Assembly: GCA_963739455.1 (NCBI GenBank)
Contig: CAVUAK010000003.1
Span: 192,001-256,000, forward strand
Reading direction: 5' to 3'
Source: an uncultured Gemmatimonadales bacterium
GTDB lineage: Bacteria; Gemmatimonadota; Gemmatimonadetes; Gemmatimonadales; GWC2-71-9
DNA length: 64,000 nucleotides
Shown here: in pieces, positions 26,374 through 32,599 of the stretch
Layout of the letters: every line of letters begins with the position of its first letter
Numbering within the stretch: position 1 is the stretch's first letter
The notes under the pieces: generated by a model
The model's database searches: none
The model's input: the letters and a program-made list of their open reading frames with translations, nothing else
What the model was told of the DNA's origin: nothing
Translations under genes and position numbers: made by a program

Positions 26374-26505
26374 ATGGCAGACAACGGCTTGAGCGACGAA
26401 GAAGCACGGGGTTTTCACCGGTATTTCGTGTTGGGATTTGTCTCGTTCACTGGCGTAGCCATCGTCGCGCATTTCCTGGCGTGGCAGTGGCGTCCGTGGC
26501 TCTGA
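26374..26505 (+). CDS. pufB: Light-harvesting beta polypeptide (43 aa; absent from the ORF track)
   Basis: [18 protein letters not shown]...[23 protein letters not shown]. Confidence 0.95.
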
Positions 26506-26533: not shown

Positions 26534-26695
26534 ATGTACAAGATCTGGCGCGGATCCGATCCAGTGACAGTACTGGCGGGATTGTTCTTCTCACTTGGCG
26601 TACTCTCGATCGTGCTGCACCTGTTCGCGTTCAGCGCGGTGGGCTACCCGAAGAGTGCCAAGATGAAGTACAACCCGCCGGCGGCGACCCAGTAA
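26534..26695 (+). CDS. pufA: Divergent LH alpha polypeptide, probable outer-ring (LHh) alpha (53 aa; absent from the ORF track)
   Basis: MYKIWRGSDP...SIVLHLFAF..YPKSAKMKY; BChl-binding His; GAGG RBS. Confidence 0.88.
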   Translation: MYKIWRGSDPVTVLAGLFFSLGVLSIVLHLFAFSAVGYPKSAKMKYNPPAATQ

Positions 26696-26790: not shown

Positions 26791-27006
26791 ATGTATCGCA
26801 TCTGGCTTGCGTTCGACCCACGACGGGTGATGGTCGCACTGACGGTGTTCCTCACAGTGCTGGCCGTCACGATCCACTTCATCCTGCTGAGTTCCAGCCG
26901 GTATGCATGGATCGAGAATGGTACGCTATCGGCAGAGAAGGCGCCGGTAGGGTCCGGGCACGCCGCCGCAGTGGCCGAGATGGCCCCGCTGCCGGCCAAC
27001 CGGTAG
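26791..27006 (+). CDS. pufA: LH1 alpha polypeptide with extended C-terminus
   Basis: [12 protein letters not shown]...[12 protein letters not shown]. Confidence 0.95.
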
Positions 27007-27058: not shown

Positions 27059-27136
27059 AGCCCCGACTTCACCCTGATGTCCTGAACGGTCCGACACGCG
27101 CGCCTGCCTGACGCCGCGCCTGGAGACATGAATCAA

Positions 27137-27961
27137 ATGGCGATGCTCACGTTCGAACGAAAGTATCGAGTCCGTGGCGGGACCCTGATTGGCGGCGATC
27201 TGTTCGACTTCTGGATCGGGCCATTCTACGTCGGGTTCTTTGGTGTCACGGCCATCTTCTTCGCCGTCACCGGCACGCTCCTGCTGGTATGGGGCGCCGC
27301 AATGGGACCCACCTGGAACCTGTGGCGCATCAGCATCGCGCCGCCCGACCTGAGTTACGGCCTGGGCATGGCACCGCTGGCGAAGGGCGGGCTCTGGCAA
27401 CTGGTCACCGTCTGCGCCATCGGCGCCTTCTCATCCTGGGCACTCAGGCAGGCGGAGATCGCCCGCAAGCTCGGCATGGGCCTGCACATTTCGTGGGCCT
27501 TCAGCGCCGCGATCCTGGCGTACGTGACGCTGGTGTTCATCCGGCCGGTGCTGCTGGGCGCGTGGGGACATGGCTTCCCGTACGGCATCTTCAGTCACCT
27601 CGACTGGGTGTCGAACACGGGATACCAGTACCTGCACTTCCACTACAACCCCGCACACATGATCGCGGTGACGTTCTTCTTCACCAACTGCCTGGCGCTG
27701 GCCATGCATGGCTCCCTGATCCTCTCGGTGACGAACCCGAAGAAGGGTGAGCCGGTCAAGACGAGCGAGCACGAGAACGTGTTCTTCCGCGATTTCCTCG
27801 GCTATTCCATCGGGGCAATCGGCATCCACCGGCTCGGCACCTTCCTCGCCATGAGCGCCGCCATCTGGAGCGCGATCTGCATCGTGATCTCCGGGCCGCT
27901 GTGGACGAAGGGATGGCCGGAGTGGTGGAGCTGGTGGCTCAACCTGCCCATCTGGAAGTGA
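27137..27961 (+). CDS. pufL: Reaction centre L subunit (alternative ATG at 27128)
   Basis: [30 protein letters not shown]. Confidence 0.98.
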
Positions 27962-27973
27962 GGCGCCCCGGCC

Positions 27974-29395
27974 ATGCTTGAATACCAGAACATCTTCACG
28001 CGGGTCCAGGTGCGCACCGCGCCCGACCCGGGGCTGCCGATCGACCTCTCGACCGGTGCCCGCTATGGCAAGGGGACGTTCAACTACTGGATCGGCAAGA
28101 TCGGCGATGCGCAGATCGGGCCCATCTATCTCGGATGGAGCGGGATCGCCTCGATCATCTTCGGCTTCTTCGCCATCGAGATCATCGGGCTCAACTTCCT
28201 GGCGCAGGTGCACTGGAGCCCGATCCAGTTCATCCGGCAGCTGCCGTGGCTGGCGCTCGAGCCGCCGCCGCCACAGTTCGGCACGCACCTCTTCCCGCCG
28301 CTGCAGCAGGGCGGGTGGTACCTGCTCGCCGGCGGGTTCCTCTCGGCCGCAATCCTGCTCTGGTGGGTGCGCACCTACCTGCGCGCGCGGGCCCTCGGAC
28401 TGGGGACGCACCTCGCGTGGGCCTTTGCGTCGGCGATCTTCCTCTACTCCACCTTCTTCTTCCAGCCGCTGCTCGTCGGCAGCTGGAGCGAGATGGTGCC
28501 GTTCGGGATCTTCGCCCACCTCGACTGGACCGCGGCATTCTCGATCCGGTACGGGAACCTCTACTACAACCCGTTCCACGCGCTCTCGATCGCGTTCCTC
28601 TACGGCTCGGCGGTGCTCTTCGCCATGCACGGGGCCACGATCCTCGCGGTGAGCCGGGTGGGTGGCGAGCGGGAGATCGAGCAGATCACCGATCGCGGCA
28701 CCGCGGCCGAGCGCGCGGCGCTCTTCTGGCGCTGGACGATGGGCTGGAACGCCACGATGGAGTCGATTCATCGCTGGGCCTGGTGGTTCGCCGTGCTGAC
28801 GACCTTCACCGGCGGGCTCGGTATCCTGCTCACCGGCACCGTGGTGGACAACTGGTATCTCTGGGGCCAGAAGCACGGCCTGGTGGCCGACTACCCGGCA
28901 CAGAATCCGGCCGCCGCCGCTGACATGGAGAAGCTGCGCGGGCAGTACGCGGGTGTGCAGCCGTCAGGCTTCCCGGGCGTCGGCATCGACGACACGATCC
29001 CGGTCGTCATCGTGGCGGAGCAGATCTACGAAAGCGTGACGAAGACGGGACGCGTGGTGACCCAGGCGATCCTCTTCGACGTGGCACAGGCCACTATCGT
29101 CGCCGATTCGAAGGCGCAGCTCGACGAGATCGGCAAGGTGCTCTCCGAGCATCCCGAGCTGACGTTCGTCATCGAGGGCCACACCGACAACACCGGCGAT
29201 CCAGCCGGTAACCAGTCGCTCTCGGAGCAGCGTGCCAGTGCGGTGCGCGACTACCTGATCACGAACTACCAGGTCCTGCCCGGCAGGCTGTCGACGGCGG
29301 GATACGGGGCGTCGCGACCGGTCGCGTCGAATGATTCGCCGGGTGGGCGCGCACACAACAGGCGCGTCGAGCTCGTCACCGGGAGCCAGCCATGA
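27974..29395 (+). CDS. pufM: Reaction centre M subunit fused to a C-terminal OmpA-like domain
   Basis: [32 protein letters not shown]; then [25 protein letters not shown]. Confidence 0.97.
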
Positions 29396-30651
29396 CACCC
29401 ATCGTTCCAGGCGCCGCGCGGCTGCTGGTGGCCGGCGCCTGCGTCCTCGTGGTTACCGGCTGCCAGCCGGGCAAGAAGGAATCGGTGCAGCGCGGCTATC
29501 GTGGCACCGCCATGGAGGAGATCTACGACAAGTCGGACCTCGCGAAGAAGGTGGCGGAGGTGGCGGCACGCATTCCCGAGCCGATTGCCCCGGCGGGTCC
29601 ACCGACGGCCGGCCCGTCACCATGGAAGAACGTGCAGGTGCTTACCGACGTAAGTCCGGGCGAGCTTACCCGCACCATGCTGGCCATGAGCACCTGGGTG
29701 GCCGGCACGGGCAACTGTGGCTACTGCCACAACCTTGCCGACATGTCCGCGGATACACTCGCCGGCGGGAAGCCGATCTACACCAAGCTGACCGCGCGCC
29801 GGATGCTGCGCATGGTGCGGGACATCAACGGCAACTACGAGGCGCACGTCAAGAACACCGGCGTCACCTGCTATACCTGCCACCTCGGGCAGCCGGTACC
29901 GAAGACCACGTGGGTGTACAACGGCAACCCGAACCAGGTGGAGCGGTACTTCCTCGACCGGTCGGCGGTGCGGGTACAGACGCACCAGGTTGCGGCCAGC
30001 AATGACAACCGGTCGTCGGTGAAGCAGACCGAGTTCACGTACGCCGTGATGATGAAGATCTCGACCGGGCTCGGGGTGTCGTGCAGCGAGTGCCACAACA
30101 GCCGCGCGTTCAACTCCTGGGAACAGGCGCCGCCGCAGCGGGTCCAGGCACTGCACGGGGCCGAGATGGTGCGGCACATCAACTACCAGTACCTCTTGCC
30201 GCTCAACGCCGTGCTGCCGGCGAGTCGACTCGGTCCAATGGGCGACTCACCGAAGGCCCTGTGCACCACCTGTCACAACGGGGCCTACAAGCCGCTCTAC
30301 GGCTACGCCATGGCAAAGGACTACCCGGCGCTGTGGGGCCGGAAGGACTGGAACGGCCAGCCGTTCCCGGCGATTCCAGCGGCGGAGCCGGTGGCTGCCC
30401 CGGCGCCCGCGCCGACCGGTGGTATCGGCACGTCGCCAACCAGTCCGAGTGCTGGCGCGACGGCCGCCGCCCCGGCCGCAACACCAGCCAGGTCGCCGTC
30501 GGGCAATGGCGGAACGGGCGCCATGGGAGGACAGGGACCAACTGGAACGCCATCCCCCGAGGCGGCACCGCGCACGCCGAGAACCGGTGCGATGGGGGGT
30601 CGCGGTCCGAGCGGCAAGGCGAAGCCGGTCGTTCCGCCGCCGGCGCACTAG
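29392..30651 (+). CDS. pufC: Tetraheme RC-bound cytochrome c with low-complexity C-tail
   Basis: Lipobox VVTGC; CGYCH, CYTCH, CSECH, CTTCH. Confidence 0.95.
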
Positions 30652-30731: not shown

Positions 30732-31202
30732 CTACTGGAAGAGCTGGGAGAAGGACTGGACCTGCGTGGGCCCGAACGAACTCACCGCGATGTGCATGCC
30801 GGTGCTGGGATCGTCCAGAGTCATCCGGCCGTCCTGCCACTTCGTGATGCGGAACGGCGTCGCCGGGTCGGTCTGGGCGACATCGCGCTTCTGCTTGATG
30901 CCGCGCAGCATGCCGAAGATGAACCCGTTCTTGTCGGAGCTGAGCCGCGCGATCTCCCGTGCCTGGCCCACGTCGAACACCGAAAGCGTCCCGTCGCCCT
31001 GCATGTCGAACCGGACCTCGCGCTGCAGTGCCACTGCCGTCACCGGTTCCTGCGAGGCCGTGTGGCCACTGACGCGCGCCTGGATGGCCACGCCGAACAC
31101 CAGCACAACCAGGAGCGACGCCCCGATGAGCGGGCCGCGCGGGACGTGAATGGTGGAGTCGGCAGGGGTGCCTGGTTCCGGTTCGACGAAGATCTCAGCC
31201 AT
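30732..31202 (-). CDS. puhC: Photosynthetic complex assembly protein PuhC
   Basis: One TM, GFIFGMLRG, WQDGRMTLDDP, SFGPT. Confidence 0.88.
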   Translation of the reverse strand: MAEIFVEPEPGTPADSTIHVPRGPLIGASLLVVLVFGVAIQARVSGHTASQEPVTAVALQREVRFDMQGDGTLSVFDVGQAREIARLSSDKNGFIFGMLRGIKQKRDVAQTDPATPFRITKWQDGRMTLDDPSTGMHIAVSSFGPTQVQSFSQLFQ

Positions 31203-31860
31203 GGGCGCCAACGATCGGTCGGAGGTGGGTGGTGGGCTTGGGCGCCTCCGCGCTCGGGTTATCGAGCTCCAGCACGGAGGCCTGCACCCCATCGCCCGCC
31301 GCGACCTGCATGTGCTCCGCCACGAGCGCCATCTCCACCAGGCCGCGCAGCATCGGTTCGGGATACCGAAGGCGCCAGGGTCGCACGTGGGGCCAGAGAT
31401 GGAAGAAGCCGATGCGGTCGGGCCGCGTCAGGCGGAGTGAGATCTGCCCGGTGCCGTCGCTGAACTGCCGGCACTCGGCGGCCTCGATGAGGCGGAACGG
31501 AATGTTGATGGTCGTCGGCAGCACGAGCCCCGCCTTGAGCACCACGCGCCGGTCGGTGATGGCGTAGACGGTGCTCTTCGCGGTGAAGTGAGCGTACGCC
31601 AGGATGCCGATCACCACGAAGGCGGCCAGGGCAAACTGGATGCCCGCCGCGGTCAGGATCTGCGAGGTGGTTGCACCCTCACGAAGCGCCCCGGCCAGGC
31701 CCAGCAGGATCAGCAGCGCGAAGTAGCCGGCGACGAGACGCACATGGAACGCATGGCGCGCCAGCGGCCGGCTTGCCGGGGCACCGCTCCAGAGGAGCCG
31801 CTCCCCGGCCGGCAGCGGCTGCGAGACGCCGCGGATCCATGTGCGGTCGTCGATGGTCAT
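31195..31860 (-). CDS. puhB: Photosynthetic complex assembly protein PuhB
   Basis: LPAGERLLW, FHVR, YAITDRRV, LWPHVRPW..PEPMLR. Confidence 0.9.
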   Translation of the reverse strand: MTIDDRTWIRGVSQPLPAGERLLWSGAPASRPLARHAFHVRLVAGYFALLILLGLAGALREGATTSQILTAAGIQFALAAFVVIGILAYAHFTAKSTVYAITDRRVVLKAGLVLPTTINIPFRLIEAAECRQFSDGTGQISLRLTRPDRIGFFHLWPHVRPWRLRYPEPMLRGLVEMALVAEHMQVAAGDGVQASVLELDNPSAEAPKPTTHLRPIVGAHG

Positions 31861-32399
31861 ATGATCGGCTGCGACCGGGCCGCCGTTGCGTACAGGTGGC
31901 CCCCGGCGTAATACGCCGAGATCCGGTCCTCCTCGCGCAGCGTGATCTGCGCGGCGTCCTTGATGCCGGGCACCTCGGCGAACTGGGCCGCGGTGATCGA
32001 CTTCACCAGCACATGATCGGTCTTCGTCAGGCCGAAGTTTGGCCACTGCACGAAGGGCACGGGCAGCAGCACCGTCCGGCCGCCGTTGATGAGCTGCACC
32101 TCGTAGTAGCGCACCTGGGGTTCGGAGCGATCGATCCAGACCTCGACGATCCGGCCGGCGATCACGCCATCGCATGCCTTCACCGCGAGGCCGCGCGGAT
32201 CGGGATCGCCCTCGGCGATGAAGAACCCCGGCGCAGCGCGCAGCGGGACGATCTTCACCAGGCCGTGGGCGGTGAGGTCGGGCACCTCGGCGCGATCGGC
32301 ATATGACGCAGGGCCAACGGCGTCCACCAGCGGGTTGCCGGTCGGGATGTGGGGCGAGCCGACGTTGCGGTCAGCTCGCACGAGCTTGGGCGCGGTCAT
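31857..32399 (-). CDS. puhA: RC H subunit, cytoplasmic PRC-barrel part
   Basis: [38 protein letters not shown]. Confidence 0.93.
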
Positions 32400-32599
32400 G
32401 AATGCGACTCCTGGCCAGTGTGATGCGCGGTATTGAACACCTTCGTCTCGGGAACCGCCGGGAAGCCCTGCACCGGTCCGCGCTCCGACTCGAGCGGGTA
32501 GCCCTCACGCTTGTCTTCCCGGCGCAGGTAGTAGATCAGCCCGAAGAAGAAGAGCCAGAAGGCGTACAGGACGATTTGCGCACCGTCGAGATGTCGCAT
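32396..32599 (-). CDS. puhA: RC H subunit, transmembrane part
   Basis: [33 protein letters not shown]. Confidence 0.93.

Follow-up and report, generated by a model that had tools for sequence, protein, structure and literature searches.

A 64,000-nucleotide stretch from an uncultured Gemmatimonadales bacterium (assembly GCA_963739455.1, contig CAVUAK010000003.1, positions 192,001 to 256,000 of the forward strand; hereafter the window, with coordinates counted from its first letter) carries a pufM gene whose product, the M subunit of a type-2 photosynthetic reaction centre (RC), continues in the same reading frame into an OmpA C-like domain. The joining of the two domains is genuine, and it is conserved and under selection. 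OmpA-anchored complexes of the inner membrane are already known, as is a comparable extension of the photosystem I (PSI) subunit PsaB; the case of a type-2 RC is undescribed in the searched literature. Its sequence features make it fairly probable that the domain, carried at the periplasmic end of PufM, is a non-covalent tether of the RC–light-harvesting (RC-LH) complex to the sacculus.

The fusion open reading frame (ORF) occupies 27974..29395 on the plus strand, starts with ATG and codes in a single frame, without internal stop, for 473 amino acids (aa) followed by a stop codon. The PufM core (residues 51-303; 28124..28882, +) is the five-helix Photo_RC domain PF00124, recognised by Pfam with an E-value of 8.9e-97 (323.8 bits for a cut-off of 27). 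The best 60 matches listed for PufM in the Protein Data Bank (PDB) are M chains throughout, headed by chain 7o0u_M of Gemmatimonas phototrophica (E 2.2e-187). The core residues H182, H202, Y210 (in the motif FLYGSAV), H219, E234 and H266 are present and presumably correspond, following R. sphaeroides numbering, to ligands of the special pair and accessory bacteriochlorophylls and of the non-haem iron and to Tyr M210. In the alignment of fused sequences these positions do not vary (22 of 22), except that H219 is found in at least 90% of the rows. An extension (residues 304-336; 28883..28981, +), which aligns to the RC-M chains of G. phototrophica and of structure 9h19, is common to all Gemmatimonadota PufM, fused or unfused, and is conserved in all 45 PufM tails of the genome survey described below. 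It is followed by a variable linker (residues 337-347; 28982..29014, +) that differs in length and sequence among the fused homologues: the free linker has about 11 residues in the window's lineage and the spacer of genus g87 is about 36 residues longer. Alignment of the fusion protein with solved RC-M chains ends at residues 336-357.

The OmpA C-like domain (residues 348-470; 29015..29383, +) is delimited by its predicted fold. PF00691 covers residues 367-463 over the complete profile (1-98 of 98; E 2.7e-22, 79.4 bits for a cut-off of 27.2). The pufM stop codon TGA overlaps the ATG of pufC at 29392 (CC-ATG-A, 29390-29395). The ORF has no signal-peptide-like stretch before the OmpA domain, and M318 is the sole methionine downstream of the PufM core. 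An initial sequence-only reading of this DNA had described an intact PufM core with its histidine ligands and tyrosine, a frame running without stop into an OmpA domain that no signal peptide precedes, and a stop overlapping the pufC start. All this holds, and the Pfam scan that it proposed places both domains above their cut-offs. It gave the linker about 50 residues and let the domain begin near 29047 (residue 359), both roughly right: the two Pfam domains are separated by 63 residues, the extension and linker together have about 45, and the modelled fold begins with a helix at residue 348.

The structure of the OmpA module was predicted with AlphaFold2 from the 22 fused sequences. Only the OmpA part of the model was used, the shallow alignment leaving the PufM core with a predicted local distance difference test (pLDDT) score below 50. 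Residues 341-470 reach pLDDT values of 75-93, and blocks over residues 301-340 have means of 32-41. The modelled module is a helix followed by alternating strands (E) and helices (H), namely E360-363, H377-392, E398-402, H410-432, E439-443, H456-462 and E465-469. A search of 48,161 PDB representatives with this model gave OmpA-like peptidoglycan-binding domains in all of its top 33 rows. They include 9uu2_A (Z 15.2, root mean square deviation 1.9 over 108 residues), Acinetobacter baumannii Pal (4g4v, Z 14.4) and OmpA (3td3_A, Z 14.2), OprF (5u1h, Z 13.9), TagL (5m38, Z 13.8) and MotB (3s03, Z 13.6); ZorB scored Z 8.4-9.5. Sequence matches agree, with E-values of 3.9e-23 for the OprF carboxyl domain (5u1h_A) and 1.7e-19 for that of A. 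baumannii OmpA (3td3). In the alignment to 3td3, D405 (codon GAC, 29186..29188, +) falls on the Asp of GHTDNTG and R420 (codon CGT, 29231..29233, +) on the Arg of LSLARA. The 15-residue spacing, read initially as that of the Asp/Arg pair that binds meso-diaminopimelate, is borne out by the alignment. The A. baumannii residues in question, Asp271 and Arg286, are reported to bind diaminopimelate (PMC5974059). D405, N413, L416, S417, R420, A421 and the stretch N462-E466, which includes NRRVE, are invariant in 22/22 fused sequences. The conservation of these pocket residues suggests that the module binds the peptide stem of peptidoglycan.

Selection on the module was estimated as the ratio of nonsynonymous to synonymous substitution rates (dN/dS, Nei-Gojobori) in nine pairs. 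The closest comparison is with G229, a genome of the same genus whose fusion has the same frame and length and 95% identity. For this pair the OmpA module has a dN/dS of 0.045 (112 codons, dN 0.033, dS 0.726), the PufM core 0.042 and the extension plus linker 0.144. Values for the module lie between 0.045 and 0.50 in 9/9 pairs, those of distant pairs being less reliable since their dS is near or above 1. None of 24 fused sequences has a stop or a frameshift. Because of these ratios and of the uninterrupted frames, the module is taken, on sequence evidence, to be translated and under purifying selection. With its Asp/Arg pair kept and a confident OmpA fold predicted, it looks functional. Four further PF00691 domains are encoded in the window's genome, as would fit a cell wall that this family recognises and that would therefore be its substrate.

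Residues 300-473 were searched against about 5.8 billion proteins and gave 4681 matches; among the 120 best matches listed, 13 clusters carry PF00124 together with PF00691. Their proteins have 465-473 aa, their tails are from 99% down to 54% identical to that of the window, they originate from JGI, NCBI, ENA and Logan assemblies, and they are annotated only as “photosynthetic reaction center subunit M”. Clusters of fused proteins at 90% identity have 2 to 88 members from many contigs, all of them from metagenomes or metagenome-assembled genomes (MAGs). In the ESM Atlas, a cluster whose 61 members are mostly Gemmatimonadota combines both families in 100% of its sequences. The fusion is common in sequence databases; the searchable literature does not report it as such.

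The search of genomes for this architecture, suggested at the outset, was also productive. PufM was sought in six frames over 401 Gemmatimonadales genomes, the window's own included, and was found in 45, of which 11 have a carboxyl-terminal PF00691 (E 1.4e-17 to 7.6e-24). The carriers are the window's genome and G229, of the same genus; G399 and G183, of the same family; and, in the sister family, G302, G204 and five members of genus g87. Two of the 45 PufM ORFs run off the contig end: L042 is still fused, and L024, which ends at 356 aa with its tail cut off, was counted and labelled unfused. A scan of genome contigs for related loci added at least two fused ones (L046, L047). A phylum-wide sample of 401 genomes has 21 with PufM; the three outside the order match residues 1-337 only, in open frames of 370-379 aa, and are unfused by length.

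The 34 ORFs without PF00691 (L024 included) have tails of 20-120 residues of low complexity, rich in Asp, Ser, Thr, Ala, Pro and Met. Among the unfused PufM from L007 to L038, some tails feature repeated DS(T/A/M)xxDS motifs, and those of L035-L038 have 100-150 Pro/Ala/Gly-rich residues; total lengths are 358-457 aa. Such tails may be what is left of the linker, or they may be independent spacers. Lineage-specific PufM tails, fused or unfused, end in ..(K/T)P, and in nearly all 45 loci, again fused or unfused, the pufM stop overlaps or nearly abuts the pufC start.

The history of the fusion was addressed with a tree of PufM cores (23 fused rows, 41 unfused and 7 proteobacterial outgroups) and a tree of OmpA modules (the 23 fused and the 107 free OmpA proteins most similar to them). 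Rows were labelled fused or unfused from Pfam in advance of tree building, and the relatives are not independent of one another. On the PufM tree, the fused cores form a clade of g87 with L047 (support 100) and a 14-row clade that includes the window (support 99). L005 and L046 are successive basal branches of an unfused clade, and L006 (G204) is nested as sister of the unfused L015 (G138) with support 97. At least five state changes are needed, three of them forced by the starred branches of the tree. A tree constrained to unite all fused cores is rejected (log-likelihood, lnL, lower by 125; p-value of the approximately unbiased test, p-AU, 0.0002; LG+G4). On the OmpA tree the fused modules lie outside a 101-row clade of free proteins (support 83), within an unresolved base. 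For a smaller analysis under LG+G4, 19 fused and 26 free rows were retained: the fused P0002, P0008, P0010 and L042 and the long-branch free P0013, P0029 and P0109 were left out, and of the other free rows every fourth was kept. Here holding the fused modules together gave a lnL 3.66 better than the free search (p-AU 0.59). Read most simply, the two trees would mean that the fusion arose once, early on, and that the tail was afterwards lost in frame or exchanged by recombination several times.

The OmpA module of L006 is of the L005/L046 type and its sister L015 has none, a difference best read as a recent loss or a recombinational tail swap. Note also that the PufM of G221 (L045), a genome of the same genus as that of the window, is only 68-70% identical to the window's and has no OmpA domain; it was noted together with that of G099 (L044). 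On the PufM tree it falls with L061 into a deep clade of their own. It seems that a single genus can harbour photosynthesis gene clusters that differ in origin.

The closest precedent is found in Gloeobacter violaceus, whose PsaB has a unique carboxyl-terminal extension of 155 aa that resembles an outer membrane protein, was confirmed by mass spectrometry and was hypothesised to anchor PSI to peptidoglycan (PMC11565984, a paper of 2024). Residues 753-864 of the 872 of this PsaB (7f4v_aB) match the window's OmpA module with an E-value of 1e-12. The extension, for which that paper cites its ref. 20, was reportedly described by Inoue et al. in 2004 in FEBS Letters. Gloeobacter has no thylakoids and its photosystem is expected to face the periplasm and the wall directly, as that of the window's organism presumably does. 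PsaB and PufM thus share a homologous OmpA-like domain at the periplasm- or lumen-facing carboxyl terminus of a core RC subunit. The carriers differ, one being the type-1 PsaB of an oxygenic cyanobacterium and the other the type-2 PufM of anoxygenic Gemmatimonadales. For this reason the PufM-OmpA protein is an analogue of the Gloeobacter fusion and not a member of it, the two fusions being independent. The initial statement that no RC with such an anchor had been described is consequently too strong. It stands for type-2 (PufLM) RCs, for which no published description of an OmpA-type anchor was found in the accessible open full-text literature, which does not extend to subscription journals. 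Term look-up gave no occurrence of “peptidoglycan” in PMC8849296, of “OmpA” or “peptidoglycan” in PMC12817894 and PMC8547001, or of “OmpA” in PMC11271474.

The general layout of an inner-membrane amino-terminal part, a linker and a periplasmic carboxyl-terminal OmpA-like domain is shared with MotB/PomB, TagL/TssL and ZorB. Those carriers are single-helix subunits of stators or secretion systems, whereas the carrier here is a five-helix, pigment-binding RC subunit. The fusion has neither the single amino-terminal transmembrane helix and MotA-like channel partner of MotB-type proteins nor any ion-channel or plug elements, so that only the anchoring principle is in common. The carboxyl domains of OprF, OmpA and Pal (5u1h, 3td3, 4g4v) are closest in sequence and fold, and their diaminopimelate-binding Asp/Arg pair is kept here. 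These proteins, fixed in the outer membrane or to it, bind the wall on its outer face, whereas the domain on PufM would approach it from the side of the cytoplasmic membrane.

The RC-M chains of G. phototrophica (7o0u_M, 367 aa; aligned over 1-357) and of 9h19_M (392 aa; aligned over 1-336), the latter of which we take to belong to the G. groenlandica RC with its double light-harvesting ring (RC-dLH) of PMC12817894, are 77-80% identical to the window's PufM over residues 1-336, extension 304-336 included. Both come from loci with the same layout of pufB, two pufA, pufL, pufM and pufC and a split puhA. They end in low-complexity Asp/Ser/Thr/Ala/Pro tails of 30-55 residues, without OmpA domain. 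The available part of PMC8849296 has no passage on the fate of the RC-M tail in G. phototrophica.

In solved type-2 RCs the M chain has five helices and its carboxyl terminus is periplasmic, on the side of the cytochrome subunit. Because the window's PufM would have the topology of G. phototrophica RC-M, to judge from their identity, the OmpA module is expected to be periplasmic even without a signal peptide of its own. In the proposed tether, the fifth transmembrane helix of PufM would exit into the periplasm and lead, through the conserved extension and the short linker, to the OmpA C-like domain. The latter would bind the diaminopimelate-containing peptide stem non-covalently, and each RC-LH photosystem in the cytoplasmic membrane would in this way be fastened to the sacculus beside PufC. 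The reading presupposes that mature PufM keeps the domain and that the domain reaches the wall, both of which we infer. Candidate benefits would be the immobilisation or stabilisation of a very large double-ring complex or the setting of the gap between membrane and wall above PufC. The double-ring RC complex of G. phototrophica has about 800 kDa (PMC8849296). Such a tether to the cell wall had been put forward in the sequence-only reading. The architecture, the periplasmic placement by homology, the diaminopimelate pair, selection and recurrence all fit it and make peptidoglycan binding, and a reach of the domain as far as the sacculus, plausible.

Several observations weigh against the tether. 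Among the 44 readable PufM tails, 33 have no OmpA domain, including those of both structurally solved RC-dLH complexes, and for this reason the domain is dispensable for photosystem function. Only about 11 free linker residues follow the extension in the window's lineage, so that the domain may sit on or beside PufC, short of the wall. A prediction of the complex between OmpA residues 337-473 and PufC residues 24-330 gave scores of 0.35, 0.00 and 0.00 (mark 0.32), which speak neither for nor against docking on PufC. The extension of Gloeobacter PsaB is not seen in the PSI cryo-electron microscopy structure (PMC11565984). Literature searches on diaminopimelate in the Gemmatimonas wall, and on whether these bacteria are free of intracytoplasmic membranes, gave nothing usable.

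The shortness of the linker is also what would be expected if the domain were a structural part of the photosystem, docked on PufC or against LH1 at its periplasmic ends and acting as a clamp like RC-S, without binding peptidoglycan. In G. phototrophica the RC is held in its ring with the help of the extrinsic subunits RC-S and RC-U (PMC8849296). Such a clamp is judged unlikely, as the residues conserved in 22/22 fused sequences are the canonical peptidoglycan-binding set (D405, N413..L416-S417..R420-A421, NRRVE) and no surface was identified that would set the fused group apart. Removal or release of the domain by periplasmic proteolysis after translation, leaving a mature M subunit like that of Gemmatimonas and a domain that acts separately or only during assembly or targeting, would agree with the predicted disorder of the linker and with the absence of the PsaB extension from the PSI structure. 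It also has a parallel in RC-S of G. phototrophica, which is processed with loss of 60% of its length (PMC8849296). This course of events appears quite unlikely in view of selection on the module equal to that on the core and of an in-frame linkage kept in at least three deep lineages; a free periplasmic domain would more simply be produced from its own gene with a signal peptide.

Repeated loss, with its five or more state changes on the PufM tree, is what might be expected if the module had been picked up by domain shuffling and were now a neutral or decaying passenger with no function. The low dN/dS in every pair, the uninterrupted frames of the 24 fused sequences and the invariance of the binding residues speak otherwise, and this rival, already disfavoured, is very improbable. 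There is, finally, the question of whether a frameshift or a chimera of assembly or sequencing joins pufM to a separate ompA-like gene. The window's genome is a four-contig MAG and no public run with this exact stretch was found: the search of sequencing runs gave none that contains more than 0.13 of the words sampled from the fusion stretch, and no RNA run among those listed. Against this, the same frame occurs in G229 and in 10 other genomes and in members from JGI, ENA, NCBI and Logan assemblies. Close relatives from two studies are represented by short Logan contigs (85% likeness); these cover 28775-29003, 28831-29012, 28983-29133 and 28954-29291 and so tile 28775-29291 without indel or joint. 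Because the fusion recurs across assemblies and these contigs tile the junction, a frameshift or chimera is excluded for practical purposes; an artefact has a negligible probability. A separate gene was rejected also for want of a start codon, a ribosome-binding context or a signal peptide, and independent expression of the OmpA domain for lack of a start codon and of a signal peptide. The stop, indel or chimeric joint that could have undone the initial reading was accordingly not found in the assemblies and contigs compared.

The fusion gene lies in a photosynthesis gene cluster that resembles those of Gemmatimonas in kind. The region is assigned to this type because pufM is flanked by pufB, two pufA-like genes, pufL, pufC, a split puhA and a PucC/LhaA-like gene. 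Upstream, pufB (26374-26505, +; PF00556 LHC, E 1.1e-11) is followed by a first pufA-like gene (26534-26695, +; PF00556 LHC, E 3.6e-4, 21.1 bits, just below the 23-bit cut-off), a second one (26791-27006, +; PF00556 LHC, E 2.8e-13) and pufL (27128..27961, +; PF00124, E 1.4e-98). A layout of pufB and two pufA is linked to the double-ring antenna of Gemmatimonas. Since pufB and two different pufA-like genes precede pufL, the window's organism probably also builds an RC-dLH complex. Downstream, pufC (29392..30651, +; PF02276, E 1.8e-93) codes for the tetrahaem RC cytochrome with a lipoprotein-type amino terminus (..LVVTGC). Residues ~320-419 of PufC (30350-30651, +) form a Pro/Ala/Gly/Thr-rich tail of about 100 residues with a repeated GAMGG(Q/R)GP(T/S)G motif, and relatives have comparable low-complexity carboxyl termini of varying length. 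An ORF of 186 aa between pufC and puhA (30732-31292, -) has no Pfam match at E <=0.01. The puhA gene is split into two ORFs overlapping by 4 bases (31857-32599, -; PRCH matches), one of 66 aa that corresponds to positions 6-70 of the PRCH profile and one of 179 aa that covers PRCH 87-133 and the PRC barrel. The split resembles the Ht/Hc subunits described for Gemmatimonas. The PucC/LhaA-like gene lies on the minus strand, as does the split puhA.

Few membrane proteins have been studied as thoroughly as RCs, and the searched literature has no wall-binding domain on a subunit of a type-2 RC. Since about one quarter of the genomes sampled that have PufM also have the additional domain, the finding bears on how far the two solved Gemmatimonas structures are representative of the phylum. 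If peptidoglycan binding is true, this would be the second independent photosystem pinned to the sacculus, after that of Gloeobacter, and the old anchoring proposal for PsaB would become testable in a different system. It can be suggested, tentatively, that phototrophic Gemmatimonadota have had a peptidoglycan tether of the RC from early on, possibly since their ancestor, that the cultured Gemmatimonas lost it and that it arose independently of the PsaB extension. Wall anchoring would then be convergent in phototrophs whose photosystems stay in the cytoplasmic membrane rather than in thylakoids or intracytoplasmic membranes; it would hold an RC-dLH complex of ~800 kDa in place and set the distance from membrane to wall. 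The finding also bears on how very large RC-antenna complexes are positioned and stabilised in a plain cytoplasmic membrane, and on how a horizontally acquired photosynthesis gene cluster is adapted to the envelope of its new host.

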